A stretch of DNA of 64,000 nt from an uncultured Chromatiaceae bacterium (GTDB lineage: Bacteria > Pseudomonadota > Gammaproteobacteria > Tenderiales > Tenderiaceae), in the NCBI GenBank assembly GCA_947085765.1, contig CAMTXZ010000075.1:7810-71809 (forward strand), given 5' to 3'. The notes beneath the pieces were generated by a model, which did no database searches, was not told where the DNA came from, and saw only the letters and a list, made by a program, of their open reading frames with translations. Below, one piece after another: positions 25,748 through 56,706 of the stretch. How positions within the stretch are numbered: the first letter of the stretch is position 1; every line of letters starts with the position of its first letter. The translations under genes and the position numbers were made by a program.

Positions 25748-25749
25748 TC

Positions 25750-28299: not shown

Positions 28300-28354
28300 T
28301 TTTACTTGCTCAATGAGTAATCAGTGTCAAATAAAAACCATAACGAGGTGATGC

Positions 28355-29098: not shown

Positions 29099-29120
29099 AC
29101 AGTAGCGCAAGGAGTTAACA

Positions 29121-29906: not shown

Positions 29907-29920
29907 GTGAGGGATGAGCG

Positions 29921-35926: not shown

Positions 35927-38087
<2,161 letters not shown>

Positions 38088-38091
<4 letters not shown>

Positions 38092-38954
38092 AACAGGGCC
38101 CTAAATTTATTGCTGAGGTCTCCAGCAACCACAGCCGTGATCTGAATCGTGCGCTTGAATTTATTGATACCGCCGCCGCAATCGGTTGTGATGCAGTGAA
38201 GTTCCAGCTCTTCAAAATCGAGCAGCTCTTTGCCCCGGTGATCCTGGCGCAGAGTGAAAATCATCGTAAACGCAAAGAGTGGGAGCTGCCGTTAGAGTTT
38301 CTGCCGCACCTGCATCAACGCTGCCGTGAAAAAAATATCGAGTTCAGCTGTACCCCTTTTTATCTTGAGGCGGTTCAGGAGCTGCTGCCCTATGTCGATT
38401 TTTACAAGATCGCTTCGTATGAACTGTTGTGGGATGAGCTGCTGATCAAGTGTGTTGAGACCGGTAAGCCGGTCATCGTCTCCACTGGCATGGCAATCCT
38501 GCCGGAGATCAACCACGCCATCGAAGTGATGCAGAATGCAGGTGGCAACGCGTTGGCGTTGCTGCATTGTGTCTCGGCCTATCCAACCCTGGCGCAGGAT
38601 TGCAATCTGGCCGCCATCACCACGATTCGTGAAGCGACAGGCGTACCACTTGGCTGGTCCGACCATACAGTAGATCCCGCCGTGATCTATCGCGCCATCA
38701 ACTATTGGGGTGCTGAATATATAGAGTTTCATCTTGATCTCGATGCCAATGGTGCCGAGTACGCCAGCGGCCACTGCTGGTTGCCGCAGCAGATGGCGGA
38801 GGTAATCGCCACCGTCAAACGTGGTTTTAGTGCCGATGGTAATGGCCGCAAAACGCCATCACCAGCAGAGCTGGCGGATCGTGACTGGCGCGCCGATCCC
38901 AAGGATGGCTTGCGACCGATGCAGAAGATTCGTGATGAGTGGGAACAACATTAA
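38088..38954 (+). CDS. NeuB-family sugar-phosphate:PEP condensing synthase (PseI-like nonulosonic acid synthase) lacking the C-terminal SAF/antifreeze-like domain
   Basis: 288 aa. N-terminus FIAEVSSNHSRDLNRALEFIDTAAAIGCDAVKFQ matches the NeuB TIM-barrel domain. An SDR gene starts 16 bp after the stop, so there is no SAF domain. Confidence 0.75.
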
Positions 38955-38969: not shown

Positions 38970-39716
38970 ATGGAACAACATCCACTAGTCATCATCCCGG
39001 GCGGTACACGTGGCATCGGTTTGGCTACGGCCAAGGTGCTGGCAATGCAGGGCTACGCGCTTGAACTCTGGTATCAGAGCCGTAAGGATGATGCCGATAG
39101 CGCCCAAGAACAGTTGCAGCAGTTCTCTGTGCCGGTGCTCTGTCGTCGTGTCAATATCGTTGATCGTAAACAGGTTCAGGATGCGCTGAATGATGTTGTC
39201 AGAAATCACGCGACCATTCATGGTCTGGTAAATAACGCCGGCATCCTGCAACAGAAACCCTTCGCCACCATCAGCGATGATGATTGGGAACGTATGGTCA
39301 ACGTCAACCTCAAAGGGGCGTTTATCTGTTCGCAGGAGGTGATGGCGCGCATGGCAGACAACGGTGGTGTGATTGTCAATGTCGCCTCATCGGGTGGCCA
39401 GCTGGGTGGCATGTTGGCTGTTCACTATGCCGTGACCAAGGCTGGCATCATTGCGCTGACAAAATCGTTGGCACGTGTCGGCGCTGCTAACGCAATACGT
39501 TGCAACTGTGTATCCCCTGGACTGATTGTGACGGAGATGACCCAGGGTGAACTAAATTCAGACGCCGGCCGCGACAAAATCTCCCTGCATGTACCGCTGG
39601 CCCGTGCCGGTGAGGCGCAGGAGGTGGCCGATGCCATTGCTTATTTGCTTTCTGAAAAAGCAACCTACATCACCGGCCAGACACTTAACGTCAACGGCGG
39701 GTTGTACATGGGATGA
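38970..39716 (+). CDS. SDR-family oxidoreductase (FabG-like; PtmA-like flagellin modification dehydrogenase)
   Basis: TGxxxGIG motif (GGTRGIGLA), NNAG motif, and catalytic Y and K (YAVTK). Confidence 0.8.
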   Translation: MEQHPLVIIPGGTRGIGLATAKVLAMQGYALELWYQSRKDDADSAQEQLQQFSVPVLCRRVNIVDRKQVQDALNDVVRNHATIHGLVNNAGILQQKPFATISDDDWERMVNVNLKGAFICSQEVMARMADNGGVIVNVASSGGQLGGMLAVHYAVTKAGIIALTKSLARVGAANAIRCNCVSPGLIVTEMTQGELNSDAGRDKISLHVPLARAGEAQEVADAIAYLLSEKATYITGQTLNVNGGLYMG

Positions 39717-40783
39717 AGCAGCTGAATCAACAGCCACACGCAGCAATCATTGGTCTTGGCCGCATCGCCTGGCGTATGGAAGATGATCTCTTGCGCACCA
39801 AACCCTGTACCTACGTGGGTGGCTATCTCAAACATGGCTGCCATATTCAGGCTGGCTGTGATGTGGATGAGAAGGCGCGGCGTGAATTTGGCAAACGTTA
39901 TGGTGTTGCACCGCTCTATGAAAACTATCAGCAGATGCTGGCAGAGCAGCAGATCGATCTGCTCAGCATTTCGGCCTACGCCACCGAGCGTCATGCGATG
40001 GTGATGGCCGCTATCAAACAGAATATCCTGGCCATCTTTTGCGAGAAGGCGCTGGCCACTTCGTTGGAGCAGGCGGACGAGATGGTTACAGCACTTGAGG
40101 CGAGCAACACCACGTTTGTCACCGGCCACATGCGACGCTGGTCTAACAATTATCAACAGGTGAAGAGCATGATCGACAGCGAGACCATTGGTCGCGTGCT
40201 CTCGGTCAATGTGCTCTTCTCCGGCAGCCTGATCCACACCGGCACCCATGCCTTTGATCTGCTGCACTGGTGGTTTGGTGCGCCGTTGGCGGCGCAGGGG
40301 CGAGTGGTCAGCAAGGCCAAAAAAGATAAACAGAGTGGTTATCGTTATAGCGACAAGGAACTTGCCGATGGTGGAGGTGTGGGACGTCTGCATTTTGCCA
40401 ACGGCGTGGTGGCGACGATTGAAGGACAGGTGAAAGATTATTTTATTTTTGAGTTCGATATCGTCGGCACAAATGGGCGTATCAGGATCGGCAATGATGG
40501 CCTCGTGCTTTATCGTCCCACTGCAAGCAAGCAGATGAGTGGCTTTGATGAGCTAATGCCTGCAACGGTTGAAACAGCAGCCCCTGTTTATGAAGGCAGT
40601 GCCTGGGATGCCGCAGTGGCAGCGTTGTTGGGGAATCAGCAGTGTCTGCAAGTAGCATCCACCGCACAAGATGCACGTATGGCACTGGAGATGGCGCTGG
40701 CCTTCTATCACTGCCAGCAACAGGGTGGTCTTGAGGTGATGTTCCCTCTGTCGCGCAACGGATTGTCAGTCCCTTCAAGATAA
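39713..40783 (+). CDS. Gfo/Idh/MocA-family NAD(P)-dependent oxidoreductase
   Basis: N-terminal Rossmann motif AIIGLGRIAWRM, the EKAL motif and the family's C-terminal alpha/beta domain. 356 aa. Confidence 0.8.
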   Translation: MKQLNQQPHAAIIGLGRIAWRMEDDLLRTKPCTYVGGYLKHGCHIQAGCDVDEKARREFGKRYGVAPLYENYQQMLAEQQIDLLSISAYATERHAMVMAAIKQNILAIFCEKALATSLEQADEMVTALEASNTTFVTGHMRRWSNNYQQVKSMIDSETIGRVLSVNVLFSGSLIHTGTHAFDLLHWWFGAPLAAQGRVVSKAKKDKQSGYRYSDKELADGGGVGRLHFANGVVATIEGQVKDYFIFEFDIVGTNGRIRIGNDGLVLYRPTASKQMSGFDELMPATVETAAPVYEGSAWDAAVAALLGNQQCLQVASTAQDARMALEMALAFYHCQQQGGLEVMFPLSRNGLSVPSR

Positions 40784-40790: not shown

Positions 40791-42026
40791 ATGATAAATA
40801 TGAATGAGTTGCCATGGACCGGCGTACAACGGCTGCAACGTAGCGATGCTGCTACACCGTTGCAGTTAACACGCCATTGTCCCTTATGTAAAAGCAGTGC
40901 GGAGCATGAACTGTTTGCACTGCACGACTTCCAGTTTTTCACCGACCAGGCAGGCCGCAATCGCGCCGACCATCGGGTGGTTCACTGCCAGCAGTGTGGC
41001 CTGATCTATACCAACCCCTGTTATACACCGGCAGGATTTCAGCTGCTATTTGATAAGGCCGGTTGCAGTTATGGCCATACTGCCGGGCGCATCGGTGAAC
41101 AGGTGGCGTGGCTGAACGAACAATTTCCCATCGCACAATCGCTGCTGGATGTTGGCTGTGGTAATGGCGATCTGCTTAAGGCGCTGCCGCAGACGCTCGC
41201 GCGTCACGGTATCGACATTGATGAGCAGACGCTCAACCGCGTGGCGCAGGATGCCCCCGGGATTGATTTTAGTGTCTGCGATTTTAATGGTCTGAAGGGT
41301 CTGCCGCAGGTGGATGTGATCACCATGTTCCATGTTCTGGAACATCTGCCCGACCCCGATGATTTTCTTGCTCAACTCAGATCTCTGTCGAAGCCTTCTG
41401 CTGCGCTGGTGGTCGAGGTGCCGGTGGTCGATCGCGCCGCTGAGTTGCAGGATCGTGATGTGGTTGGTTTTTTCACCGTGCAGCACCTCACACACTTCAG
41501 CAAGACAACGCTGGAACAGATGTTAGCGAAAAACGGTTGGCGTGTTGTACATGCCGAGGCGATTGCGGGTTACAACGGTTGGCGGGTAGTGGCGGAGCAT
41601 GGCCCGGTGCAAACAGATGTTGGTAATGATGCCAGCGGCCTGATAGCAGCACGTAGCTATCTTGAGGTCTGGAAACAAAATGTTGAGCTGGTGCAGCGCC
41701 GCATCGAAACATTGAATTGCGCACCGCAAATAATGATCTGGGGAGCAGGGCAGCACACTGAGTATCTGGCGTTGCTGACACGCCTGTTTGAACTGGATGC
41801 CAGTTTTGTTGTGGTGGATAGTGATCCGATGAAACAGGGAGAGCACTACCACTCGTTGCCGGTGCTATCGCCGGATCAGGTTCCAGAACATGAGTGGCGC
41901 AGCGGAAACTTCCCAATAGTGATCTCCACCTATGGTGGCCAGGAAAGCCTGTTGGCAATCTTGAAAGAGAAGGGTGTGGCTGCCGCCAGAATCATCACAC
42001 TCTATGACCGGACATCACGTTACTAA
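40791..42026 (+). CDS. Class I SAM-dependent methyltransferase with N-terminal Cys4 zinc-ribbon and C-methyltransferase-like C-terminal domain
   Basis: CPLC...CQQC zinc ribbon. SAM motif I LLDVGCGNGDL. 411 aa, an architecture seen in sugar C- and N-methyltransferases. Confidence 0.7.
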   Translation: MINMNELPWTGVQRLQRSDAATPLQLTRHCPLCKSSAEHELFALHDFQFFTDQAGRNRADHRVVHCQQCGLIYTNPCYTPAGFQLLFDKAGCSYGHTAGRIGEQVAWLNEQFPIAQSLLDVGCGNGDLLKALPQTLARHGIDIDEQTLNRVAQDAPGIDFSVCDFNGLKGLPQVDVITMFHVLEHLPDPDDFLAQLRSLSKPSAALVVEVPVVDRAAELQDRDVVGFFTVQHLTHFSKTTLEQMLAKNGWRVVHAEAIAGYNGWRVVAEHGPVQTDVGNDASGLIAARSYLEVWKQNVELVQRRIETLNCAPQIMIWGAGQHTEYLALLTRLFELDASFVVVDSDPMKQGEHYHSLPVLSPDQVPEHEWRSGNFPIVISTYGGQESLLAILKEKGVAAARIITLYDRTSRY

Positions 42027-42052
42027 ATCGAAGATGAAATGGAATTTTAATC

Positions 42053-43747
42053 ATGACAATTGGTGCTGAAGTTATCGTCGACGCATTTGTCCGCCACGGC
42101 TGCGAGCGTCTCTATGTCTACCCCGGCGGCACGATTGCGCCGATCCTGGATGATGCCAAAAAAAGAGGGCTGGATATATTTTGCGGCCGCCACGAGCAGG
42201 GTGCCGGTTATGCCGCACTGGCGGTATCACGCTTGCGGCTGCAGCCGCAGGTGGTGATGGTGACCTCGGGGCCGGGTGTGACCAACCTCATCTCGGCAGT
42301 GGCCGACGCCTATTACGACAATACTCCGTTGATTGTGATTACCGGCCAGGTGGGGACGGGGGATCTCAAGCGTGATCTGCCACTACGGCAGCGTGGTTTT
42401 CAGGAAACCGACAGCTGTGCCCTGATGGCCTCGATCACCAAGGCGCAGTTTTTGGTAGAGCATCAGGACGATCTGGCACGGGTAATGGAGCAGGCGTTTC
42501 ATATCGCCAGCAGCGGCCGCTTTGGTCCGGTGTTGATCGACATGCCGATGAATGTGCAGCGTGGTGAGTTGTCTGCCCCTGCAGTTGTGCCAGCCATGTC
42601 GAAAGATGATCAGGCAGACGATCTTGCTGGCGTAGCAGAGTTGGCGCAGTGGCTGAGTGTGGCGCAGCGTCCGGTCATCATTGCCGGGCAGGGTGTGTTG
42701 TTGTCACGCAGCCATGAACTATTACGCGAGCTGGCAACGACCTATGGCATTCCCGTTTCACATTCGCTGTTAGGCCTGGGGGCGATGCCCTCTGATTCTG
42801 AATTAGCGCTGGGGTTTCACGGCCATACCGGCAATCAGTATGCAGGCAAGGCGATTCAAAATGCCGATCTGGTTGTGGCGGTGGGTTCACGTCTCGATGT
42901 ACGCCAGACCGGCAATCAGTTTGACCGTTTTGCTCCAGGTGCACGCATTGTGCGTATCGACCTGGATGCCAACGAGGCCAAACACGGCCGGGTGCGTACC
43001 AATCTGTTGATCAATGCCGATGCCAATGCAGCTTTGGCAGCACTATTATTGGCATTGAAAAAGGTGCAGCTGCCGCAGTGGTCGGTTTGGCGGCAACAGA
43101 TTGCGGGGTGGCGGCAAGAGCATGCCCTGACCTATAACAAACAAGGCAAACTTAAACCGCAACTGGTGGTGGAGAGTGCTGACCGTTTAAGCCGTGATAA
43201 ACGGGTGATCTGTCTCACCGGTGTGGGTTCTCATCAACACTGGGTGGCACGCCATTTCAGTTTTGACTATCCACAGCGCACACTGCTGACATCGGGTGGC
43301 CACGGCACCATGGGGTACGACCTGCCGAGTGCGGTAGGGGCACAACTAAATGATAAAGATGCGCTGGTGATCTGTATTGTCGGTGATGGTTCGTTTCAGA
43401 TGAACATGCAGGAGCTGGGGGCCGTGGCTGAACGTGGTCTGCCGGTGAAGATCATCGTGCTCGATAATCATCGCCTCGGCATCGTCTCGCAGTTTCAGAA
43501 CTTCAACTGGCAGGATGACCCCACCACTGGCAATAAGTGGAATCCCGATTTCGCCGCGATTGCCCAGGGATACGGAATTCGTGCCTTTACGGTGAGCGAG
43601 AGCGGTGATGTTGAGGCGACGCTGCAAGCGGCATTTTCCCATAACGGTCCGGCGCTGATTCATTGTGTGATCGATGAAGAGGAGGATATCTCGCCGATGT
43701 TGCTGGCAGGTCAAACACTCGACGGGATGTGGCCCCATGTTAAATAA
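42053..43747 (+). CDS. Thiamine-diphosphate-dependent enzyme, acetolactate-synthase-large-subunit-like (carboligase)
   Basis: 564 aa with three TPP-enzyme domains and a GDGSF...N TPP-binding motif. Confidence 0.8.
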   Translation: MTIGAEVIVDAFVRHGCERLYVYPGGTIAPILDDAKKRGLDIFCGRHEQGAGYAALAVSRLRLQPQVVMVTSGPGVTNLISAVADAYYDNTPLIVITGQVGTGDLKRDLPLRQRGFQETDSCALMASITKAQFLVEHQDDLARVMEQAFHIASSGRFGPVLIDMPMNVQRGELSAPAVVPAMSKDDQADDLAGVAELAQWLSVAQRPVIIAGQGVLLSRSHELLRELATTYGIPVSHSLLGLGAMPSDSELALGFHGHTGNQYAGKAIQNADLVVAVGSRLDVRQTGNQFDRFAPGARIVRIDLDANEAKHGRVRTNLLINADANAALAALLLALKKVQLPQWSVWRQQIAGWRQEHALTYNKQGKLKPQLVVESADRLSRDKRVICLTGVGSHQHWVARHFSFDYPQRTLLTSGGHGTMGYDLPSAVGAQLNDKDALVICIVGDGSFQMNMQELGAVAERGLPVKIIVLDNHRLGIVSQFQNFNWQDDPTTGNKWNPDFAAIAQGYGIRAFTVSESGDVEATLQAAFSHNGPALIHCVIDEEEDISPMLLAGQTLDGMWPHVK

Positions 43748-44978
43748 AGACTCAAATAAAGAAAATAAAACACTGTTGGTGATCAGTGGCGGCGCCGAGG
43801 CGGTGCCGGGCATCAAACGCGCCAAGGCGATGGGATTGTATGTGGTAGTGAGTGATATGAACCCCGATGCGCCAGGATTCGAGTTTGCTGATGATCGACT
43901 CATCGCCAGCACTTACGATCTGGAGCAGACGGTTTCAGTTGCCCGTGATTACCACCTCAACAAGCGCAGGCTCGATGGTGTTATATGTATGGCCGCCGAT
44001 GTGCCGCTGACGGTGGCCTCGGTGGCGGATGCCTTGGCATTGCCGGGTTTGACTCTGGAGACGGCGCATCTTGCCGCCGACAAACTGCTGATGAAACAGC
44101 GTTTCCTGCGTGATGGCATCGCCATCCCCTGGTTCAGTGCGGTGGAGTCGCTGGTACAGCTGCAACAGATTGTAAACGAGCGTGGTGCACGTCTGATTAT
44201 TAAACCTGTCGATAGCCGTGGCGCCCGTGGTGTGTTGCTGCTGAATGAAGATGTTGATCTTAGCTGGGCCTATGAACATGCGCGATCACAATCACCCACC
44301 CTGCGGGTGATGGTGGAGCAATATCTGCCGGGACCACAGGTGAGCAGTGAAACGGTGATGGTGGATGGCGTCGGCTACACCTCTGGATTTGCTGATCGTA
44401 ACTACGAATACATGGAACGTTTTGCACCCTATGTGATTGAGAACGGTGGTGACCAACCTTCACGCCTGAGCAGCGAGCATCAACAGGCGATCATTGCGCT
44501 GGCAGAGCAGGCGGGGCGTTCGATGGGGATTATGAACGGTATCGCCAAAGGTGACATGGTGATGACCGTAGATGGTCCGAAGGTGATCGAGATCGCCGCA
44601 CGGCTTTCTGGTGGTTGGTTCTCCAGCGACCAGGTGCCGCTGGCAACGGGTGTGGATCTGGTAGGTGCGGCAATTCAACTGGCCCTGGGTGAACAACCGG
44701 ATGTTGAAGCGTTGCTGCCAAAACATCATAAAGGTGTGGCGATCCGATACCTCTTTCCTACCCCCGGTGTGGTGAAGGCGATTCAACACACCGAGCAGTT
44801 TGCCAACAAACCGTGGGTTCATCGGCTCGGGTTTTTTATCGAACCGGGCGAACAGATTGGGGCGATGAGTGACCATACCAAACGCGCCGGTTTTGTTATT
44901 ACGTTGGGGCGTGATCGAGCCGAGGCAGTGGCCCGTGCTGAAGAGGTTATCAATAACATCGTGATCGAGATGCAGTGA
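43737..44978 (+). CDS. ATP-grasp domain ligase
   Basis: IIKPVDSRGARGVLLL and EIAARLSGG motifs typical of ATP-grasp enzymes. The track start at 43674 lies inside the upstream gene; ATG at 43737 is chosen (11-nt overlap). Confidence 0.65.
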   Translation: MLNKDSNKENKTLLVISGGAEAVPGIKRAKAMGLYVVVSDMNPDAPGFEFADDRLIASTYDLEQTVSVARDYHLNKRRLDGVICMAADVPLTVASVADALALPGLTLETAHLAADKLLMKQRFLRDGIAIPWFSAVESLVQLQQIVNERGARLIIKPVDSRGARGVLLLNEDVDLSWAYEHARSQSPTLRVMVEQYLPGPQVSSETVMVDGVGYTSGFADRNYEYMERFAPYVIENGGDQPSRLSSEHQQAIIALAEQAGRSMGIMNGIAKGDMVMTVDGPKVIEIAARLSGGWFSSDQVPLATGVDLVGAAIQLALGEQPDVEALLPKHHKGVAIRYLFPTPGVVKAIQHTEQFANKPWVHRLGFFIEPGEQIGAMSDHTKRAGFVITLGRDRAEAVARAEEVINNIVIEMQ

Positions 44979-44982: not shown

Positions 44983-46749
44983 ATGAACAGGTGCAGAGTC
45001 CTGGGTATTGTGGGGGCGCGTCTCAACTCCAGCCGTTTGCCGGGCAAACATCTGCTCGACCTGGCGGGCAAACCACTCATCGCCCGCATCTTTAAACGGT
45101 TGGAACAGATTGTTGAGCTGGATGCCATCGTGCTCGCTACCACCGCCGATGACTACAACCTGCCGCTGGTGCAGTGGGCAGAGCAGGCGGGTAAAGAGTT
45201 GTTTGCCTATGACGGTGATGTTAACGATGTGGTGGGGCGTGTTGATGCCATCGTTAAACAGTACCAGCCACAGATTGTTGTCTATTTTTGTGGCGACTCA
45301 CCGCTGATCGAACCGCACATGGTTACTCGTCTTATCAATGCACTGCTTGCTGCACCTCAAGCTGATTTAGTTGAACTGCGTTCCAGCCGGGAAGAACGGC
45401 GCTCCATTCATGAGGGCTTCATGCCCTGGCCGATCAAAACATGGCAGCGGTTGGTGGCATTGGCAACCGATGTGAGTGAGCGGGAGCATGTAGGCAGTTC
45501 GCTGAAAAAAGCGACGGGGCTGACAAAGATTTATGTTACCGATGATGAGGTGTTTTCACGCATTGAACAGCGCATTTCGGTTGATACCCCCTCTGATTAT
45601 CAATTTATGGCCACCGTTTACCAGCGCTGGTATGCACAGAATCCATCGCACTCTATCGTTTCACTCGAGTGGGTGATCGATCAACTGCTGGTCGATGAGT
45701 CGTTATCTCTTATGAATCAGCAGGTACGGCAGAAGGGTGTTAATGATCGATCGGCCAAGATTGTTCTGCTTACACATTGCGGTGAGTCGATCGGCCTGGG
45801 CCATCTGCGCCGTGCCATGGTACTGGCACGGGCGTTACAGGATCGCCACGCGGCCGCAGTTGAATTGCTGATTGTGGGCGATGCAGTTGCGCTGGCCGGT
45901 TTGGAACTGTTGCCACACCGCTTTATTGTTGCAAACAGTGATATTGACCAGTTGGCGCAACAGCTGATGGAATGCCACCCCGAGGCGGTGGTGATAGATG
46001 TGGCGGCTGATCGTTTGAACATTGATTTTGGCACGTTGTTGGCATCACTGCGTCAGCAGCAGATTGTCACGGTAGCCGTTGATGGTCTGGTTGAACAGCA
46101 TGAGCTGCTCGATCTGATCTTCATCCCATCGTTCTATCTCGCCCCCGAGCAGAGGGTGCTGGCAGTGCAGGAGAAGATTTTGTTTGGTTGGCATAATTAC
46201 TTTTTTGATCCGGCGTTGCAGCCGTCTCCCTGGAGTGGTGGCAATAAAATAATTGTGATGACAGGTGGTAGTGACCATTACGGTTTGGGCGCGCTCTGGC
46301 CAACCATGCTTGATGGTGCGTTGCCAGCAGGAACAATCATCACCTGGATTACAGGGCCTTATGCCAACGCGCCTGAAGTGCCAGCGAATCCACGGCTGAC
46401 ATGGCAGGTTGAACACGCACCTGAAAATCTGGCGCAGTTGATGGCACAGGCCGATTACGCACTGACGCCGTATGGCGTGACGCTGTTTGAGTTGTTGAAG
46501 TTGGCAAAACCGGTGGTTGCCTATCATCCGGGTAATACCCAGCAGGCCGAGATGGCAGTTTTTATCGCGGCAGAGGTGGCGCGGTTGGCCATGACGCCGG
46601 AGGGTGCGGTGGCGGCGTTGGTGGCGTTGATGGCTGATGATAAGGCCGCCAGGGAATTGGTAAAAAATGCAACGCAAAGGATGGCTGGCAGCAGCGGTGG
46701 CATCAAACTGGCCGCCAGTGTGATGGGACTATTGGAGCGCCGACAATGA
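44983..46749 (+). CDS. Bifunctional fusion: N-terminal CMP-nonulosonic acid cytidylyltransferase (PseF/NeuA-like) plus C-terminal PseG-like UDP-sugar hydrolase (GT-B fold)
   Basis: N-terminus GARLNSSRLPGKHLLDLAGKPLI is the cytidylyltransferase P-loop. The C-terminal half carries GESIGLGHLRRAMVLARAL, the PseG signature, and a GT28-like C-terminal domain. 588 aa. Confidence 0.7.
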   Translation: MNRCRVLGIVGARLNSSRLPGKHLLDLAGKPLIARIFKRLEQIVELDAIVLATTADDYNLPLVQWAEQAGKELFAYDGDVNDVVGRVDAIVKQYQPQIVVYFCGDSPLIEPHMVTRLINALLAAPQADLVELRSSREERRSIHEGFMPWPIKTWQRLVALATDVSEREHVGSSLKKATGLTKIYVTDDEVFSRIEQRISVDTPSDYQFMATVYQRWYAQNPSHSIVSLEWVIDQLLVDESLSLMNQQVRQKGVNDRSAKIVLLTHCGESIGLGHLRRAMVLARALQDRHAAAVELLIVGDAVALAGLELLPHRFIVANSDIDQLAQQLMECHPEAVVIDVAADRLNIDFGTLLASLRQQQIVTVAVDGLVEQHELLDLIFIPSFYLAPEQRVLAVQEKILFGWHNYFFDPALQPSPWSGGNKIIVMTGGSDHYGLGALWPTMLDGALPAGTIITWITGPYANAPEVPANPRLTWQVEHAPENLAQLMAQADYALTPYGVTLFELLKLAKPVVAYHPGNTQQAEMAVFIAAEVARLAMTPEGAVAALVALMADDKAARELVKNATQRMAGSSGGIKLAASVMGLLERRQ

Positions 46750-48710
46750 AACAGGCCTATACCATCTTCCATCTCAATCTGGCCTACTCATCCATTGCGG
46801 AAGGGCAGCGCCGCACGGTGATAGATAACTGTTATATGCCGCTGCTCGAATTGATTGAACAGCGTGATTTTAAGATTGGCATCGAGCTGACTGGCTGGAC
46901 GCTTCTGCAGATTAATACATTGCTACCAGAGTGGGTGACACGCTTCAGGGCGGCGCTGGCAGCGGGGCGTACCGAGCTGATCGGCAGTGGATATTGTCAG
47001 ATTATTGGACCGTTGATTCCGTTTGAGGTCAATCAGTGGAATCAGCGTATCGGTTTGAATATCTATGAAGAGTTGCTGGGCGTTAAACCAAGGCTGGCGT
47101 TGGTCAATGAGATGGCCTACTCGTCGGGCATGTTGGAGCTGTATCAGGATGCGGGCTATGAAGGCATCATCATGGATAGTGACAATGTGACGCTGGCTCA
47201 TGATTTCATCGCTAGCGAACAGCGTCTTCCCAGTTACGCCAACGATCAGAGTGGGAGTATTAAACTGCCCGTGCTCTGGTCTGATTCAATCCTGTTCCAA
47301 AAGTTACAGCGCTATTGCCACGGTGATATTCGTCAGGTCGATTATCTCGGTTATTTCGAGAAGCGACTGGTCAATAGTCGCGTGCCCTTAGCGCTCTACT
47401 GCAACGATGCCGAGGTATTTGATTATCGCCCCGGTCGTTATGACTCCGAATCGAAACTGCACCCCGAAGGTGAGTGGCAGCGCTTAGCGAATCTGTTTGA
47501 TAAGCTTGTTAATGAATATGCTATTGAAATGGCACTGCCTTCGATTGTGCTGAAGAAACATTTGTCACTCAATGGTCTTGAGTCACTCTGTCTGACATCA
47601 GCAACACAGCCGATCCCGGTTAAAAAGCAGGCCAAGTACAACATCAGCCGCTGGGCCATCACCGGGCGCGACGACCTCTGGTTAAACACCATGTGTCAGC
47701 GCCTCTATCAATCTCTGAAGGGTGGTCATGATGAGGTGCAGTGGCGCAGACTTTGCGAACTCTGGTCGAGTGACATCCGCACCCACATTACCGTCGAACG
47801 TTGGTCTGCTGCACAACAGCAGGTGCGGCAGATGTTGGCCGCACTTGGTGACAATGGTGATTTTGATGGTGGTGTGAAACAGCAGTTTCCTACCGCGAAT
47901 ATTATTCGCGGTGTATGTGATGGTGTGACTGTTGAACGTGACCCCGAGGGCATCATGCTGACACTTGTTACGCCTGACATCCGGCTGCGAGTAAACCTGC
48001 GGCGTGGCATGGCGATTGATTCACTCGCCTTCAGGAGTCATGGCTGGCAGCCGGTGATTGGTACCTTACCCCACGGCTATTTTGACTCTATTGAACTGGG
48101 TGCAGATTTTTACTCGGCCATTACCGTGATCGAAAAGGTGACACAACATCAACGTATCACCGATCTGGAAAAGGTCGAGCCAGTGATGACACATGATGAA
48201 CACTACCTCTATCTGCGCGCCGTGCTTGTCACCAAAGATGGCGAGATTGTCAAACAGCTGCGCATTTCACGTCATGGTGAAACGGTTGGTTTTGGCATTG
48301 AGTTTCCTGGTTGGAAGCGTCCCTATGGCACCGTGCGTACCGGTTATCTCACCTTTCTGCCCGAGGCCTTTACTGGAACCGTGAAGGTTAAGAGCCGCAA
48401 CGGTGGCAAGATGGCGGAGTCTTTTGAACTCGACCGTGATGTACTGCATACCCAACCCGCCTCGACGCTGGTCTCTGCGACCACCGGTCTGGGCGGGGAG
48501 AACGGTTCAATCATTGTGACGGATGATGTGGTAGGGGTGGTGATCGACTGGCAGCCATCGGCGTGTGCAGCGTTCCCGATGCTCTATCATCGTGAGTGTT
48601 CACCCGCGGCGCTGACAAGAGTTATCTTCTCGCTGGCAGAGCTGGATGAGTCATCGCGTGATGGTGCCGAGCTGCCAGGCTTCTCTTTTTCAATCAGTCC
48701 TTCAAGGTAG
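46746..48710 (+). CDS. Large conserved protein with an N-terminal region resembling the glycoside hydrolase family 57 catalytic domain; function unknown
   Basis: Block-wise resemblance to the GH57 N-terminal barrel: FHLNLAYSS (cf. HQHQP region), GWTLLQI, ELIGSGYCQIIGPLIP, VNEMAYS (candidate nucleophile Glu), IIMDSDN. 654 aa, translationally coupled on both sides. Confidence 0.4.
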   Translation: MKQAYTIFHLNLAYSSIAEGQRRTVIDNCYMPLLELIEQRDFKIGIELTGWTLLQINTLLPEWVTRFRAALAAGRTELIGSGYCQIIGPLIPFEVNQWNQRIGLNIYEELLGVKPRLALVNEMAYSSGMLELYQDAGYEGIIMDSDNVTLAHDFIASEQRLPSYANDQSGSIKLPVLWSDSILFQKLQRYCHGDIRQVDYLGYFEKRLVNSRVPLALYCNDAEVFDYRPGRYDSESKLHPEGEWQRLANLFDKLVNEYAIEMALPSIVLKKHLSLNGLESLCLTSATQPIPVKKQAKYNISRWAITGRDDLWLNTMCQRLYQSLKGGHDEVQWRRLCELWSSDIRTHITVERWSAAQQQVRQMLAALGDNGDFDGGVKQQFPTANIIRGVCDGVTVERDPEGIMLTLVTPDIRLRVNLRRGMAIDSLAFRSHGWQPVIGTLPHGYFDSIELGADFYSAITVIEKVTQHQRITDLEKVEPVMTHDEHYLYLRAVLVTKDGEIVKQLRISRHGETVGFGIEFPGWKRPYGTVRTGYLTFLPEAFTGTVKVKSRNGGKMAESFELDRDVLHTQPASTLVSATTGLGGENGSIIVTDDVVGVVIDWQPSACAAFPMLYHRECSPAALTRVIFSLAELDESSRDGAELPGFSFSISPSR

Positions 48711-48716: not shown

Positions 48717-50000
48717 ATGCAGAGTGACTTTTTGCAGCAAAATCTTCAGCTGATTGAACGGCGCTGGCCGCTGTTGCATCGGTCGCTGGTTGAACTCAAC
48801 ACGATTGAGCGGGCACACTTCATCAGCGAGACACAACAAGCAACGCTGCTGGTGGATGGCATTCATCTGAGCAGCTGTTTTGATAGCCGGAGTGAGGCGC
48901 GCCTGCAAGCTACTATGGTTTCAGAGGCCGCAACAAAGGTGTGGGTCTATGGTGTGGCAACGGGTGATCTGCAACGTGAGTTGTTGCAAAGGCAGTGGCT
49001 GCAGCGATTGGAGGTGGTAATACTGAATCTGGAACTATTCAGAAGTTGTCTCCGATACTTTGACCATCGCGACTGGTTGGCAGATAACCGCAGCAGACTA
49101 ACATTGGCTACGGCAACAACCGATGTTCGGGCGCCGTTTGCTGTGGTGCCTGCCTGTCTTAAACTTATCGAACCGGCCGCCGCCAGGGTGCGCGATCTTA
49201 TTGTGCTCGATCTGGATACTGGTTATCTCAATAATCGGGTCAGGGGTAACCGCCAGTTCCAGCAACAGATCGATGAGAATTTACCACTGGTTAAACAGGA
49301 TGGTGACGTTGAGGTGCTATTTGGACGTCATGGAGATGGCCCCTGCTATGTGGCAGCGGCAGGGCCATCGTTGAGTGAACACTATGAGCAGCTGCGTGGG
49401 CGGGGCGCAGATAGCTGTTTGATTGCGGTTGATGCGGCGCTCAAACCGTTATTGCTGCAAGGCATTATTCCCGATGCGGTGGTGACCATTGACGGTGTGC
49501 GTGACCACATCATGAAGCTTTTTGATGTTGATCTTGCGCCACTGAAAGATATTCCACTGATCTATTTTCCGATTGTGCATGGTGATGTGCTTAAACAGTG
49601 GCCCGGGCCGCGTTATGCCGCCTACTCTAATAGTCCACTCTATGAACAGTTAATGTCGCACTCCCCCAAAGGCATGCTTTACGCAGCGGGTACTGTGCTG
49701 CATGCCGCCGTTGATCTGGCGGTAAAGATGGGCAGTTGTCAGCTCCATCTGTTGGGGGCAGACTTCTCATTTCCGGGCAACAAGACGCATGTTGCCAGCG
49801 CGGTCTTCTGCCAGTCGGCCGATCAAACTGGTTATCAGGAGTGGCTCGAGGATGGCCATGGCCAGCAGGTACGGACCTCAAAAAATCTGCGCGGTTATAT
49901 GCGTGATCTTGAACGCTACATCGCCCAACATCCACAGGTAACCTTTATCAATGCCAGCCGCAGCGGCGCGGCAATTATGGGGACACGTTATGTGGATTAA
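48717..50000 (+). CDS. maf: Motility accessory factor (Maf) / DUF115-family protein, candidate flagellin glycosyltransferase
   Basis: Maf-type N-terminus FLQQNLQLIERRWPLL. DUF115 core VAAAGPSLSE...LIAVDAALKPLL...IIPDAVVTIDG...LLGADFSF. Confidence 0.65.
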   Translation: MQSDFLQQNLQLIERRWPLLHRSLVELNTIERAHFISETQQATLLVDGIHLSSCFDSRSEARLQATMVSEAATKVWVYGVATGDLQRELLQRQWLQRLEVVILNLELFRSCLRYFDHRDWLADNRSRLTLATATTDVRAPFAVVPACLKLIEPAAARVRDLIVLDLDTGYLNNRVRGNRQFQQQIDENLPLVKQDGDVEVLFGRHGDGPCYVAAAGPSLSEHYEQLRGRGADSCLIAVDAALKPLLLQGIIPDAVVTIDGVRDHIMKLFDVDLAPLKDIPLIYFPIVHGDVLKQWPGPRYAAYSNSPLYEQLMSHSPKGMLYAAGTVLHAAVDLAVKMGSCQLHLLGADFSFPGNKTHVASAVFCQSADQTGYQEWLEDGHGQQVRTSKNLRGYMRDLERYIAQHPQVTFINASRSGAAIMGTRYVD

Positions 50001-50015
50001 AAGTAAGGTGTCAGA

Positions 50016-50279
50016 ATGATAAAAACCCCGTGTGATATATACAGGATGGAGGCAGTTGAGGCGTTTCGTCTTGGCATGGAAGGCAAGGGCAGTGATGCCA
50101 TGATGCGGTTGATGGATTGCATGGCGCCGTTGTTGGAGAGCAATGCTGCCCATCTTGGCACAGATGATGCGGAGTTGCTGAATCTTATTGCTGAGGCACA
50201 ACAGCGTGGCGACAACATCTTTGTGGCCGACCTTCTTGAATATATGATTCCAGATAGCGCGTTTGGTATGTCTCTTTGA
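50016..50279 (+). CDS. Small hypothetical protein (87 aa) at the 3-prime end of the glycosylation operon
   Basis: SD AAGGTG 6 nt upstream. 16 bp after the maf stop. No recognisable family. Confidence 0.3.
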   Translation: MIKTPCDIYRMEAVEAFRLGMEGKGSDAMMRLMDCMAPLLESNAAHLGTDDAELLNLIAEAQQRGDNIFVADLLEYMIPDSAFGMSL

Positions 50280-50316
50280 ATTTTATTTTAACGAGGGCAT
50301 ATCTTTTTGGTGGAAG

Positions 50317-52848
50317 CTATTCCAATTTTAGTGCTTGAGTAAGTTTCTCGACACCGGGGTGGTTTGGGTCTGTATCTATAATGTGGATGAGCGCACTTTC
50401 CGCAGCCTCGCGTGCACCAACATCGGATAGCAGTATGCCGAGTTCAAACATGGTGTCGAGATCGCCTGGAAATTCTTGTAAATAACCGGTATAGGCCACT
50501 ATTGCTTCGTTTATATATCCTGCCAGCGTCAGGAAGCGGGCATAGAAACTTTGGTAGCTCACTCTGCTTTCTGCGAGCAGTTTTAATGCAGGTAGAATTG
50601 TCTGGTAATCCTCATTAGCCAATGAGAAGTTGATAATACGCTCAAGTGCCATCTGTTTTAGATCACTGTTGATCGCTGTATCAATAGAGTAGTAAAGCGT
50701 TTCGGCCATTTTGTAGTTATGCTCCAACTCCGATGTGAGTCCATCTACAAATAACTTTGTCTGTATTGCCAGGGGTTCTATGCGTTTCGATAGCCCTGTG
50801 GTGATGCGCCTTAGTCCGACAGCATCACCTTTGGCATGGTAGGTGATGGCACTTTCGACAATCGATCCAAAGGTGTTGGTAGCTGATATAAGATCCTGAA
50901 AGCTCTGTTCAAAATTTTTGCTATCCGTACTGAGCATGGTATGGAATTGAGAGTGCATCAATTTAATACGTTCTTTTACCTGGGGCGATCTTTTTTTGTA
51001 GGTTTCAGGGTGGCGTTGTTTCCACATGTCAGCGCGGCCATAGACTATATCCTGCCGCCATTGACTGAACAGGGTCTCAAAATCGGGTGATGGGCGCTCC
51101 TCTTCAATGCGGCTGAGGAGGCGATTTTTGGCATCATGGACAACCTCTAACAGAACGGTGGCGCCATGGAGAAATTCTTCATAATAAATTTTTGTTTTGT
51201 TGAAAAGTTCATCGGCTGACCAGTCATCACCAGAATCGGCAGTAATGATCTTAGCAAAACCGACAGAGTTATAGTGCTTCACTGTTTTACTCATCATTTT
51301 AAAACGGATTTCAAGTCTCCTTTCTATTTTTTCCATCTGTTTTTTATATTTTGAGTATTCTGAGGTGTTGACCATCTCCGCCATCTTTGCATTGCAGTTA
51401 AGGGCAATAGCGCTAAGTTTTTTAATCCATCTTAAGTCATTGACGGCCTTGTCGAGTAGTTCGATCATGGTGTTGTAATAATTGCATCTATCTTCACGGC
51501 TATCTTTGTCGAGAAGTGATGAGAGGGTCTGCCAGGCAGATTGGGTAAGTGGCTCATCAATGATAAGTGCATCGGGATGAATGTATTCCACCCCTTCAAT
51601 TTTTGCGGCAGTAATGGCTAGATTGATAATTTTGCAATTATTCTTACTGGCCGCCACGGCCTGCCTTGATATAACCTTGATTGCTTCGTAATAGCCCTTG
51701 TTGGTTTCAGCCTCTACGTCAGCATTGGTAGTCACGGTGTAATCGATCCTCCCCAGCATCGGTCCGGCGGCATACTCAACGGTGCCCTGGGCGTGGGTAT
51801 GGCCAGCAGCGCTGTAGCATAGATCGACACCGGTGAGGACTATTTGCGAGCAGCCAAACTCTTGAGCAATTAGAATGGCGTTGTTAGTGACGGTAGGTGA
51901 TATGGTTTCAATGTTATCAAAATCATCATCGTTCCATGGCAGACGCGGACCGAGGAACAGATTTCGATGTGGCCATTGGCCGAGTAACAGCGGTGTGGTG
52001 TGGCAGCCATTGATGAAGATGGTTTTGTTGCCTAGGTTGAGCATCTCTTTGCTGACGGAGAAACTGACAAATTGTGGATCAATGGAAACGACTATATCGG
52101 GTTCTATTTCGGCCTGGAGCAGCCGTGCAGAGATCCTTGATACCGCAATCAAGATGGCTTCGTTTCGATGTCTTTTAATCCAGGGGATCAGTTCATCAAG
52201 TGATGGACCTGCACCCAGGATGATCGCGCATTTACCTTTTAAGCTGCCACGTAGATCAGCGGCAGGGATGCGGTTTTCTGCCAAATTTGCCAGCTGGCTA
52301 TTAAAGAATATGTGGCTGTCAAACTGTGCTGTGAAGAGCCAAAATATATGGCGTAGCTCTCTGTTAACCGACTGGGTTAGTGCCGGGTAGGCTGGGTGAG
52401 CCGCCTGTTGCGCTGCACATGATCTGACATAACTGATCTTGCCGGAGTAAGTGTAGTTGAGTAGGGCTAGTTCATGTGCGCGCTCGACCCAGTGAGTTGC
52501 ACAGCTGATGGCAACCCTGGTGGCCAGTTCGGTAGAAATAAATTTACTGTCGATGTGGGGGGCGATCTCATCCGGCTCTATAAATAGATAGCGACTACCA
52601 CGTGGCAGACCACGGTCGATAATAAACTGCGGTAACAGGCCGGAATCGCTGCCTACCACAACGTAGAGGGTGTTCTCCTGAAACAGGGCATCGCCAAAAC
52701 GTTTTTGGAATTCAGCGGTAGCACTGGCGGATTCAAAAATGGTGCCCACAAATTCCGTGATGTAACAATCACCAAAACAGTTTTCTGTGGTCGGCAAGGG
52801 AATTATCTCTGCTGTATTGATGTTTGATCCTGGAGACTGTGTGGTCAT
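50317..52848 (-). CDS. Second Maf/DUF115-family protein fused to C-terminal TPR repeats (about 843 aa; start could instead be 52899)
   Basis: DUF115 core CAIILGAGPSLDE...ILIAVSRISARLL...IEPDIVVSIDPQ...VLTGVDLCYS. Tetratricopeptide-like helical repeats at the C-terminus. Markedly AT-richer than its neighbours. Confidence 0.6.
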   Translation of the reverse strand: MTTQSPGSNINTAEIIPLPTTENCFGDCYITEFVGTIFESASATAEFQKRFGDALFQENTLYVVVGSDSGLLPQFIIDRGLPRGSRYLFIEPDEIAPHIDSKFISTELATRVAISCATHWVERAHELALLNYTYSGKISYVRSCAAQQAAHPAYPALTQSVNRELRHIFWLFTAQFDSHIFFNSQLANLAENRIPAADLRGSLKGKCAIILGAGPSLDELIPWIKRHRNEAILIAVSRISARLLQAEIEPDIVVSIDPQFVSFSVSKEMLNLGNKTIFINGCHTTPLLLGQWPHRNLFLGPRLPWNDDDFDNIETISPTVTNNAILIAQEFGCSQIVLTGVDLCYSAAGHTHAQGTVEYAAGPMLGRIDYTVTTNADVEAETNKGYYEAIKVISRQAVAASKNNCKIINLAITAAKIEGVEYIHPDALIIDEPLTQSAWQTLSSLLDKDSREDRCNYYNTMIELLDKAVNDLRWIKKLSAIALNCNAKMAEMVNTSEYSKYKKQMEKIERRLEIRFKMMSKTVKHYNSVGFAKIITADSGDDWSADELFNKTKIYYEEFLHGATVLLEVVHDAKNRLLSRIEEERPSPDFETLFSQWRQDIVYGRADMWKQRHPETYKKRSPQVKERIKLMHSQFHTMLSTDSKNFEQSFQDLISATNTFGSIVESAITYHAKGDAVGLRRITTGLSKRIEPLAIQTKLFVDGLTSELEHNYKMAETLYYSIDTAINSDLKQMALERIINFSLANEDYQTILPALKLLAESRVSYQSFYARFLTLAGYINEAIVAYTGYLQEFPGDLDTMFELGILLSDVGAREAAESALIHIIDTDPNHPGVEKLTQALKLE

Positions 52849-52938
52849 TGACTGGCGGTCCTTTCGCAGTTTGCTTCGATGATGCAGGTTTGGTGCCATC
52901 GAGTTATGACTGAGTACCTCTGAAAAGCCGCATTTGAC

Positions 52939-52966
52939 TAAAGTTAGCTGTTCAAGGGGCCGATAG
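52939..52966 (+). promoter_or_regulatory. Sigma-28 (FliA) promoter of the flagellin gene: TAAAGTTA-N12-GCCGATAG
   Basis: Near-perfect match to TAAAGTTT-N11-GCCGATAA, about 110 bp upstream of the fliC ATG. Confidence 0.7.
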
Positions 52967-53078
52967 ATTCTACGGGAGCGGTAAATATTTCAAATTAGGA
53001 AGTATATCCGCTGAAAGTGAGTGGGCGATGTGACACAACTTTGACACATCGCCTTGAAGTATCGTAGGAGTAGTCATC

Positions 53079-53900
53079 ATGGCACAAGTTGTAAACACTA
53101 ATATCATGTCTCTTAACGCGCAGCGTAACCTGAATAGTACCAATTCAGCGATGCAGACTGCGATTCAGCGCCTCTCTTCTGGTATGCGCATCAACAGCGC
53201 CAAGGATGACGCGGCTGGTTTGGCGATTTCGGAACGTTTTACCGCACAGATCCGCGGTTTGAATCAAGCCTCTCGTAACGGCTCTGATGCCATTTCTTTG
53301 GCACAGACTGCTGAAGGTTCTTTGAAGGAGATAACCACAAACGTACAGCGTATCCGCGAACTGGCGGTACAATCGGTCAACGCCTCAAACAGCACCTCTG
53401 ACCGTACTGCTTTGAACATTGAAGTAACAGAGTTAAAAGCAGAAATTTTACGTATCGTCGGCACCAAGTTCAATGGCAAGGCCATCATCGGCGCCAGCGC
53501 CGCCACCTTCAACTTCCAGATTGGTGCCGACGCGGGCGAGACAGTCGGTATTACAACCACCAACCTTTCAACGGCTGGTACTAGAACAGCCATATCCAAT
53601 CAGACTGTTAATACCGCAGCATCGGCGGCCACTATGATTACAAGGGCGGATGCATTTCTGAGTACACTCAACTTAGAGCGCGCCAAGTTGGGTTCGGTAC
53701 AGAACCGTTTTGACTCAGTAATCCGAAATGTACAAAACTCGGCAGAGAATATATCAGCTGCGCGTAGCCGTATTATGGATGCTGATTTTGCGGTAGAAAC
53801 AGCTGCACTGACTCGTGCCCAGATTCTGCAACAGGCCGGTGTGGCGATGTTGAGTCAGGCAAACTCCATACCTAACAATGTATTAAGTCTTTTGAGATAA
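53079..53900 (+). CDS. fliC: Flagellin (short form, 273 aa)
   Basis: Conserved N-terminal ([19 protein letters not shown]...) and C-terminal (...[16 protein letters not shown]) D0/D1 regions with a very short central segment. Confidence 0.9.
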
Positions 53901-53989
53901 GCCACTCCTTAGTTTGGTGAATATTATGAATAACTTGGCCGCAGCAGCGTCTGCGACCAAGTTGGATTAATAAATTAGAGGCCAAAGTT

Positions 53990-54391
53990 ATGGTCAATGA
54001 ATTAACAGGATATACAGCGCCGCGGCAATCTTTCGTACCTGGCGCTTCAGGATCTACCGTATCAGGGAAAGGAGATAATGCGGTAGTACCAGTGAAAAGT
54101 TCAGAAGTGAACGCTCTTGCCACGGCGGGCAAAGATTTGCCGTCCGGTCAACAGCTTGACTCTCAAACCCCTTCAGATGTTGTTGAAGCCGTTCAAAAGA
54201 TGCGTGACCTCATGCAGGTGATTGATCGTGATCTGCACTTTAGTGTTGACGAAGATAGTGGTCTTACAATCGTTAAAGTGATTGATTCGGAAACCAAAGA
54301 GGTTATTCGCCAAATTCCGTCAGAGGATATAATGAGAGTTGTACGATCCCTCGAGAGTGGAGGAGGATTGCTTTCTGACGTAACAGCTTAA
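53990..54391 (+). CDS. flaG: Flagellar protein FlaG
   Basis: 133 aa. C-terminal motif LHFSVDEDSGLTIVKVIDSETKEVIRQIPSE is typical of FlaG. Position between fliC and fliD. Confidence 0.75.
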   Translation: MVNELTGYTAPRQSFVPGASGSTVSGKGDNAVVPVKSSEVNALATAGKDLPSGQQLDSQTPSDVVEAVQKMRDLMQVIDRDLHFSVDEDSGLTIVKVIDSETKEVIRQIPSEDIMRVVRSLESGGGLLSDVTA

Positions 54392-54442
54392 GTATGGCAT
54401 GGAAGGTGCATTTTACTAGATGGGTTTTGAAAGAGGTGAATT

Positions 54443-55795: not shown

Positions 55796-55845
55796 GTTTT
55801 TGATAAGGTGCCTGTTTGCTCCTTGTGTAGACTTTGGAGAGATGT

Positions 55846-56274: not shown

Positions 56275-56278
56275 GATT

Positions 56279-56644: not shown

Positions 56645-56706
56645 CCTGTTATTTTGTGGGATAACCACTGTATATTCTGTTGCTACTTATGAAAAGGAGT
56701 CTATAG

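Follow-up and report, generated by a model that had tools for sequence, protein, structure and literature searches.

Three adjacent genes at positions 40791-44978 of a 64-kb stretch of gammaproteobacterial DNA (contig CAMTXZ010000075.1; the whole stretch is called the window below) encode a zinc-ribbon methyltransferase, a thiamine diphosphate (TPP)-dependent carboligase and an ATP-grasp ligase. By domain content, protein lengths and genetic context, they match the genes sfmD, sfmB and sfmE, which belong to an operon for flagellin modification in Shewanella oneidensis MR-1. The system is already known genetically as sfmABCDE, and its enzymology is unsolved. The trio is part of a larger conserved module to which a short NeuB homologue, a short-chain dehydrogenase/reductase (SDR), a Gfo/Idh/MocA oxidoreductase and a GH57-like protein also belong. 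We propose that in this sfm-type operon the TPP enzyme, SDR and methyltransferase would build an acid that the ATP-grasp enzyme would ligate in place of the acetyl group added by PseH during the synthesis of pseudaminic acid (Pse), a proposal to which we give about even chances of being correct.

Bubendorfer and coworkers described sfmABCDE (SO_3261-SO_3265) in S. oneidensis MR-1 and reported that SfmA is a NeuB-domain protein of 290 amino acids (aa), SfmB an IlvB-like TPP enzyme (581 aa), SfmC a FabG-like protein (255 aa), SfmD an S-adenosylmethionine (SAM) methyltransferase (395 aa) and SfmE an ATP-grasp protein (412 aa) (Bubendorfer et al. 2013, PMC3765264). Within the flagellar region, the operon is next to pseB/pseC, an oversized cytidylyltransferase gene (SO_3269) and genes for two Maf proteins. 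According to the authors, clear orthologues of PseH, PseG, PseI and PseF are missing in MR-1, and the cluster was seen in only one further Shewanella species (PMC3765264). In-frame deletion of sfmA, sfmB or sfmD results in unmodified flagellin and no filament, while an sfmC mutant produces flagellin of unmodified size and some filaments and an sfmE mutant keeps its filament and a flagellin that is still slightly modified; none of the sfm deletions causes a growth defect (PMC3765264). In a December 2023 preprint the Sfm proteins are still "of unknown function".

The same five-gene set is present in the window, where the products corresponding to SfmA, SfmB, SfmC, SfmD and SfmE are 288, 564, 248, 411 and 413 aa long. 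Both systems have the five protein types at near-equal lengths and lack PseH, and in both the polar flagellar cluster contains pseB/pseC, two maf genes and genes for an oversized cytidylyltransferase and a short flagellin. The setting is likewise of the sfm type, with flgB-L upstream and two maf genes, flagellin, flaG, fliD and fliS downstream. The two systems differ in gene order, which is pseB-pseC-A-C-(Gfo)-D-B-E here and A-B-C-D-E with pseC and pseB downstream in MR-1, in the additional Gfo/Idh/MocA gene here, and in the host, a Candidatus Tenderia-like gammaproteobacterium. A Pfam scan of the window genes identifies the window as a gammaproteobacterial polar flagellar cluster, in which a tightly packed operon on the + strand lies between flgL and the flagellin gene. 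The features are as follows.

~21.4-35.7 kb: flgN, flgA, a cheV-like gene, cheR and flgB-L, upstream of the glycosylation operon.
35957-36955, + strand: PseB, UDP-GlcNAc 4,6-dehydratase (inverting); TIGR03589, 545.8 bits (cutoff 407.75).
36952-38091, + strand: PseC aminotransferase, which makes the UDP-4-amino sugar; TIGR03588, 444.5 bits (cutoff 423.5).
38088-38954, + strand: short NeuB-family synthase, 288 aa, SfmA counterpart and presumed nonulosonate synthase; Pfam NeuB, 7e-59, residues 26-255.
38970-39716, + strand: FabG/BudC-like SDR, 248 aa, SfmC counterpart; adh_short_C2, 1.5e-58.
39713-40783, + strand: Gfo/Idh/MocA oxidoreductase, a variable accessory gene; Pfam matches.
40791-42026, + strand: zinc-ribbon SAM methyltransferase, 411 aa, SfmD counterpart; Methyltransf_23, 1e-20.
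42053-43747, + strand: acetohydroxyacid synthase (AHAS)-like TPP-dependent carboligase, 564 aa, SfmB counterpart; three TPP_enzyme domains.
43737-44978, + strand: ATP-grasp carboxylate-amine ligase of the L-amino-acid ligase (LAL) type, 413 aa, SfmE counterpart; LAL_C2.
44983-46749, + strand: fusion of a PseF-like cytidylyltransferase and a PseG-like domain, 588 aa; CTP_transf_3 at residues 8-133, TIGR03590 at residues 259-522.
46746-48710, + strand: GH57-like protein, 654 aa, conserved partner of the ATP-grasp gene; Glu and Asp of the catalytic type kept.
48717-50000, + strand: Maf-type flagellin glycosyltransferase, 427 aa; MptE-like, 5e-33.
50016-50279, + strand: conserved open reading frame (ORF), 87 aa, candidate GlfM-like partner; tblastn against related loci.
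50317-52899, - strand: second Maf-type glycosyltransferase, 860 aa; MptE-like, 1.6e-41.
53079-53900, + strand: short flagellin, 273 aa, presumed acceptor; Flagellin_N and Flagellin_C matches.
53 kb onward: the short flagellin, flaG, fliD, fliS, fleQ-type regulators and fliF, downstream of the glycosylation operon.

From PseB to Maf the intergenic distances are -11 to +26 nt. The trio itself was the subject of an initial annotation, and its three ORFs were recovered on the + strand with the natures given there (40791-42026, 42053-43747 and 43674/43737-44978). The 11-nt overlap between the TPP and ATP-grasp genes is correct when the ATP-grasp gene starts at the ATG at 43737; this start gives a protein of 413 aa that is identical to the one on record for the source contig and agrees with the lengths of its homologues (404-410 aa). 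The methyltransferase protein on record starts 9 nt downstream of the start used here and is 408 aa long.

The canonical CMP-Pse pathway of Campylobacter and Helicobacter (PseB, C, H, G, I and F) has in common with the window the PseB and PseC equivalogs, putative PseG-like, NeuB-like and cytidylyltransferase functions, and transfer by Maf. PseB and PseC are canonical, both scoring above their equivalog cutoffs. The absence of a GNAT acetyltransferase from the island also holds, as Pfam found no acetyltransferase family among all plausible genes of the 64-kb window, which thus differs from the canonical pathway in lacking PseH. A census of 150 small ORFs, taken from 70 related loci and able to overlook families matched by fewer than three ORFs, likewise gave no recurrent acetyltransferase family. 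The window further departs from the canonical pathway by its additional TPP, SDR, methyltransferase, ATP-grasp and GH57-like genes and by its PseG-like domain, which is fused to the cytidylyltransferase and scores below the cutoff (TIGR03590, 54 bits against 153.55, on residues 259-522 of the 588-aa fusion).

The NeuB homologue differs from the canonical synthase as well. Its scores fall short of the equivalog cutoffs for PseI and for NeuB (166 bits against 340 for TIGR03586), its match to TIGR03586 stops at profile position 274 of 327, and neither Pfam nor NCBIfam finds a SAF domain in its 288 residues. Its homologues are ~60% identical across phyla. The SAF-less form is constant in the module, with 284-290 aa in loci L001, L002 and L074 and in SfmA of MR-1. 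A role for the short NeuB in making the C9 acid, rather than as the Pse synthase, was considered and is less parsimonious, since it is the sole NeuB beside pseB/pseC/pseF in most loci. Locus L074 carries a second, full-length NeuB, which is a point for that role.

The module extends far beyond Shewanella. A genome scan with an alignment of the ATP-grasp protein and two peptide patterns, which picked up no Shewanella, found it in 71 species-level genome loci from ~15 phyla. Within the Pseudomonadota these belong to the Gamma- and Alphaproteobacteria; further loci come from Desulfobacterota, Geobacter, Myxococcota, Bdellovibrionota, Acidobacteriota, Actinomycetota (Solirubrobacterales), Chloroflexota, Bacillota (Syntrophomonadaceae), Planctomycetota, Gemmatimonadota, Nitrospinota, Marinimicrobia, Margulisbacteria, Bacteroidota and Rhodothermota, as well as one contig binned as Methanothrix. 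The closest relatives are metagenome-assembled genomes of Candidatus Tenderia, with an ATP-grasp identity of 82-95%. Components were counted by tblastn in the 46 loci with enough flanking DNA. The SDR and the GH57-like gene are each present in 41 of these 46 loci, mostly directly adjoining the ATP-grasp gene, and the core of the module is the SDR, the ATP-grasp enzyme and the GH57-like protein. A TPP gene of one type or the other is also present in 41/46 loci. PseB is found in 22 of the 46, PseC in 23, the short NeuB in 26 and the Gfo/Idh/MocA gene in 5.

The TPP step is carried by two types of gene. The AHAS-like gene is found in 26/46 loci. In 16/46 its place beside the SDR and ATP-grasp genes is taken by a split transketolase/DXS-like pair (~286 + 326 aa), which according to Pfam consists of the N-terminal half and the pyrimidine/C-terminal half of a transketolase/DXS-like enzyme (loci L008, L016, L027, L029, L031, L033, L034, L036, L047, L050, L055, L059, L064, L065, L073 and L077). 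The two types never both lie beside the ATP-grasp gene; in the one locus with both, the transketolase is 7 kb off on the opposite strand. AHAS-like and transketolase loci are interleaved on the ATP-grasp tree, and the exchange therefore happened repeatedly. The conserved trait is therefore TPP-dependent two-carbon transfer beside a ketoreductase and a ligase, rather than AHAS as such. A search of plasmids gave distant matches only, among them pDCAR1 of Solidesulfovibrio carbinolicus, a cultured organism with an independent annotation. This plasmid carries a NeuB-family gene, pseF, a cytidylyltransferase gene, a methyltransferase gene, fabG, transketolase N and C genes, a further methyltransferase gene and genes for ATP-grasp, glycoside hydrolase, pseB and pseC; no pseH is annotated on this RefSeq example.

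Among the characterized families in NCBIfam and the PDB, the 564-aa TPP enzyme of the window appears closest to biosynthetic AHAS. Its best NCBIfam match is TIGR00118 (AHAS large subunit) with 492.1 bits, under the equivalog cutoff of 538.35, and its best PDB matches are AHAS catalytic subunits (344 bits). Compared with IlvB, IlvG and IlvI it has the same three TPP domains, and the catalytic Glu and the GDGS...N motif of E. coli IlvI are kept, as is the Arg of RFDDR (RLDVR here), which in AHAS binds the carboxylate of the 2-keto acid acceptor. It differs from biosynthetic AHAS in its score below the cutoff and in its glycan-synthesis context. The Trp of the IlvI QWQ motif is replaced by a Phe (QFQ) that is conserved in the family of this enzyme, and the family has a six-residue insertion with an invariant RQRGFQ relative to IlvI. 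No regulatory small subunit gene adjoins the TPP gene, whose neighbours are the methyltransferase and ATP-grasp genes. By these features the enzyme forms a subfamily of its own beside AHAS. Its homologues are abundant and, among the best 120 matches listed, ~60% identical across phyla. In most loci the TPP gene adjoins the SDR gene, and models of acetoin/butanediol reductases match the SDR as well.

The match to TIGR00118, and the fact that only a 64-kb window of the genome is in view, would fit a housekeeping origin of the trio, in which an IlvB-type synthase, a generic ligase and a generic methylase merely lie near flagellar genes and a pseH elsewhere completes the canonical pathway. This is extremely improbable. 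The score under the equivalog cutoff, the missing small subunit, the replaced Trp and the RQRGFQ insertion all set the enzyme apart from IlvB. The genes are translationally packed within a glycosylation operon, 71 loci from many phyla have the same neighbouring genes, and the MR-1 deletions remove flagellin modification without a growth defect. The housekeeping explanation is already contradicted by this conserved synteny and by the MR-1 genetics.

The ATP-grasp protein is a carboxylate-amine ligase of the L-amino-acid ligase type, to judge by its LAL_C2 domain (PF18603, 63.2 bits, cutoff 29.4) and by its closest solved structures, which are L-amino-acid ligases (3vot, TM score 0.83-0.87) followed by PurT. 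With this fold and domain, the enzyme is therefore expected to join a carboxylate to an amine. It has in common with the L-amino acid ligases BL00235, BacD and RizA and with PurT the ATP-grasp fold, the LAL C-terminal domain and, as predicted here, ligation through an acyl phosphate. It differs from them in its likely substrates, a sugar amine and a hydroxy acid, and its identity to them is 14-22%. Its homologues are abundant and, among the best 120 matches listed, are 404-410 aa long and ~60% identical across phyla.

The methyltransferase is of the class I SAM type (Methyltransf_23, 1e-20). It had been called a zinc-ribbon, C-methyltransferase-like enzyme, a description that the architecture upholds and the sequence family does not. 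The zinc ribbon (CPLC...CQQC) has four Cys residues that are at least 90% conserved in 41 homologues. In Foldseek searches its AlphaFold model (pLDDT 94) had full-length matches only to MtmC, KijD1 and TcaB9, with TM scores of 0.62-0.67 (for 4rv9, E 7e-21, TM score 0.67 over the full length), and these matches take in both the zinc domain and the nucleotide-binding C-terminal domain. The model thus predicts the three-domain fold of the nucleotide-sugar C3-methyltransferases, including the N-terminal four-Cys zinc site shared by TcaB9, KijD1 and MtmC. In contrast, identity to these three enzymes is 16-19%, phmmer detects 4rv9 with an E value of only 2e-5, and the N- and C-terminal Pfam families of this group are not matched even at E 0.01, where the protein matches generic methyltransferase families only. 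The product in MR-1 also differs, as it carries O-methyl groups.

The MR-1 glycan contains a core of 274 Da, C11H18N2O6, corresponding to a mono-N-acetyl Pse with a basic group, and a second unit of 236 Da, C9H16O7, which is nitrogen free and carries 0-2 O-methyl groups (250 and 264 Da) (PMC3765264). No separate oxonium ion was seen for the second unit, its methyl groups were identified as O-methyl by nuclear magnetic resonance (NMR), and an unmethylated 510-Da glycoform is present in the wild type (PMC3765264). A saturated C9 hexahydroxy acid, C9H18O8, has by formula arithmetic C9H16O7 as its acyl residue. This formula is one unsaturation short of a ketosidically linked nonulosonic acid, which was therefore rejected as the identity of the unit. 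As the unit is nitrogen free, the only amide that the ATP-grasp enzyme could form is between the carboxylate of the unit and the free amine of Pse, which is normally the target of PseH. A non-acetyl substituent replacing the PseH acetyl group is the simplest reading of the MR-1 glycan. The initial annotation had offered two possibilities, a non-acetyl group on the 4-amine or a branch on a keto intermediate as made by YerE; the first is supported by this glycan with its one acetyl group and its nitrogen-free unit, but the second is not, with PseC intact and the MR-1 core unbranched.

The proposed pathway begins as usual with PseB and PseC producing UDP-4-amino-4,6-dideoxy-AltNAc, as shown by their equivalog scores. 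Acetylation by PseH would not take place. Instead, the TPP enzyme would couple a two-carbon unit to a carbonyl acceptor, giving an alpha-hydroxy-ketone that the SDR would reduce to a polyhydroxy carboxylic acid and the methyltransferase would methylate. The ATP-grasp enzyme would convert the carboxylate to an acyl phosphate and ligate it to the 4-amino group, the future N7 of the nonulosonate. The PseG-like domain, the short NeuB and the PseF-like domain would then complete the sugar and activate it with CMP, and Maf would move it onto flagellin. The gene identities and the PseB/PseC step stand on the data given above; the later steps are inferred, and ligation may come before or after tailoring. 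The product would resemble the flagellin glycan of Treponema denticola, which, as cited in PMC13439194, is a 2-methoxy-4,5,6-trihydroxy-hexanoyl-nonulosonic acid (Kurniyati 2017) and offers a structurally solved precedent. Going by that citation, both are nonulosonates bearing an O-methylated polyhydroxy acyl group, but the acyl chain is C6 in T. denticola and C9 in the MR-1 unit.

Several points weigh against this pathway. A simple linear scheme does not account for the MR-1 phenotypes, since loss of the ligase gene, sfmE, has the mildest effect and loss of sfmB or sfmD abolishes modification even though an unmethylated glycoform exists. One way out is that without SfmB, SfmC or SfmD the ligase loads the wrong acids and dead ends result, whereas the free amine can pass when the ligase is missing. 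Another is that the chain is tailored after attachment, on a nucleotide-linked intermediate, which fits the methyltransferase architecture. The 236-264 Da unit is easily lost in the ion source, behaviour seen more typically with an ester or glycoside linkage than with an amide. The methyltransferase model resembles nucleotide-sugar binders, so that tailoring may occur on a nucleotide-linked intermediate and not on a free acid. The GH57-like protein with its catalytic Glu/Asp pair has no role in the proposed schemes. The likeness to the Sfm proteins of MR-1 is one of domain content, lengths and context, and the search for a GNAT covers the 64-kb window, leaving room for a pseH elsewhere in the genome.

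The first and third of these points bring up a different order of steps, in which the ATP-grasp enzyme first puts a small keto acid on the nucleotide-linked amine and the TPP enzyme, SDR and methyltransferase then extend, reduce and methylate it. Such an order would suit a methyltransferase with the three-domain fold of a dTDP-sugar C3-methyltransferase, including its nucleotide-binding C-terminal domain, and would explain the MR-1 phenotypes, as the free amine would bypass the pathway without SfmE while dead-end acylated intermediates would build up without SfmB, SfmC or SfmD. The acceptor-binding Arg kept by the TPP enzyme (RLDVR) is also counted in its favor. The same Arg tells against it too, as an N-acyl amide acceptor would have no free carboxylate for this conserved residue to bind. 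Transketolase-type enzymes use aldehyde acceptors, and the repeated swap with one of them is harder to reconcile with this order. We consider this order unlikely, while still giving it some weight.

The TPP enzyme and its neighbouring reductase also mirror YerE and YerF of yersiniose synthesis, to which they were compared by description; in both cases an AHAS-like TPP enzyme is followed by a reductase in a sugar pathway. AHAS-like and two-subunit E1/transketolase-like TPP enzymes are both known to branch keto-sugars, which parallels the AHAS/transketolase swap in the module. By analogy, the TPP enzyme could add a two-carbon branch to a nucleotide-linked keto-sugar that the SDR would reduce and the methyltransferase would C-methylate, giving the 236-Da unit or an altered nonulosonate skeleton. 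The fold of the methyltransferase, which is that of C3-methyltransferases acting on 4-keto sugars, and the glycosidase-type catalytic residues kept by the GH57-like protein agree with this. However, YerE branches a CDP-4-keto sugar, whereas here the keto-sugar is aminated by PseC, which needs the same 4-keto group, and the known nonulosonate core of MR-1 (C11H18N2O6) is unbranched with both nitrogens present. The extra MR-1 unit, with no oxonium ion and with O-linked methyl groups by NMR, behaves as an acyl and not a glycosyl group. In addition, the core module has no second nucleotide-sugar pathway and no conventional glycosyltransferase, and branching would leave the ATP-grasp enzyme no job. 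Branching of this kind is therefore improbable.

Still less probable is a direct replacement of PseH by the TPP enzyme, which would transfer an acyl group, bound to TPP and derived from pyruvate or, in the transketolase variant, from a ketose, to the 4-amine, with the ATP-grasp enzyme providing a dispensable outer decoration. No flagellin modification occurs in MR-1 without the TPP gene, as would be expected for a loss of pseH, whereas some remains without the ATP-grasp gene; the absence of a GNAT from the window fits as well. Against this, the MR-1 core is mono-acetylated and not di-acylated, and the SDR and methyltransferase are left unexplained. To our knowledge, N-acyl transfer by an AHAS-like enzyme is without precedent, and this also counts against the replacement.

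The GH57-like protein has as its best PDB sequence match 1k1w, a 4-alpha-glucanotransferase of 659 aa. Its residues E122 and D221/E223 are invariant in 45 homologues, and the surrounding motifs resemble the catalytic regions of GH57. We know of no place for a glycosidase-type enzyme in a nonulosonate pathway. Together with the proposed ligation, the distribution of the core outlines a widespread, PseH-independent nonulosonate route in ~15 phyla and possibly an archaeon, in which a TPP carboligase or split transketolase and an SDR would build a sugar-like polyhydroxy acid, the ATP-grasp enzyme would install it on the 7-amine and the GH57-like enzyme would help. This generalization is tentative, and we think it somewhat likelier to fail than to hold.

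Variants of the module add to this picture. The closest non-identical relative, L074 (Gammaproteobacteria ND3_Bin_17), has four additional genes between pseC and the short NeuB gene (positions 2890-6039 of L074), encoding an Fe-alcohol dehydrogenase, ORFs of 171 and 155 aa (one with a weak match to TPP_enzyme_C) and the full-length NeuB of 353 aa, and a Methyltransf_21 gene is inserted between its TPP and ATP-grasp genes. The contig binned as Methanothrix (L023) carries a complete module of PseB, PseC, short NeuB, cytidylyltransferase, SDR, AHAS-like TPP enzyme, ATP-grasp and GH57-like protein, which would mean either that an archaeon uses the pathway or that the contig is misbinned. Three related loci contain genes of the transaldolase/fructose-6-phosphate-aldolase family (TAL_FSA; best E value 4e-59), a hint that the side chain of some variants draws on carbon-transfer chemistry of sugar phosphates.

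Within the window, the G+C content of the glycosylation operon is 0.53-0.55, that of the flagellar structural genes (20000-30000 and 50000-58000) 0.44-0.48 and that of the left third 0.54-0.58. The 87-aa ORF starts 15 nt past the gene for the 427-aa Maf and has no match in a Pfam scan. By tblastn it is kept beside the Maf homologue in L003 (85%), L004 and L074 (80%), L005 (70%) and L011, L059 and L034 (40-42%). GlfM (SO_3260) is a small partner required by Maf-2 of S. oneidensis, and the 87-aa ORF may be its equivalent.

Many bacteria must glycosylate flagellin with Pse derivatives in order to assemble a filament, and the 538-Da Shewanella glycan has awaited a structure and a biosynthetic route since 2013. 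What is new here is the occurrence of the module far beyond Shewanella, its core of SDR, ATP-grasp and GH57-like proteins, a TPP step carried out by two unrelated enzyme types, and a methyltransferase that is predicted to be built like a nucleotide-sugar enzyme. The survey and the structures lead to a testable assignment for each enzyme, and Solidesulfovibrio carbinolicus, Plasticicumulans acidivorans and Roseiterribacter gracilis are cultured organisms in which these assignments can be tested. If the ATP-grasp enzyme does replace PseH, this would be a new way to diversify sialic-acid-like sugars and a possible tool for making N7-modified pseudaminic acids. If the PseH-independent route is as widespread as the distribution of the module suggests, it would represent a general and so far uncharacterized logic for the diversification of these sugars.

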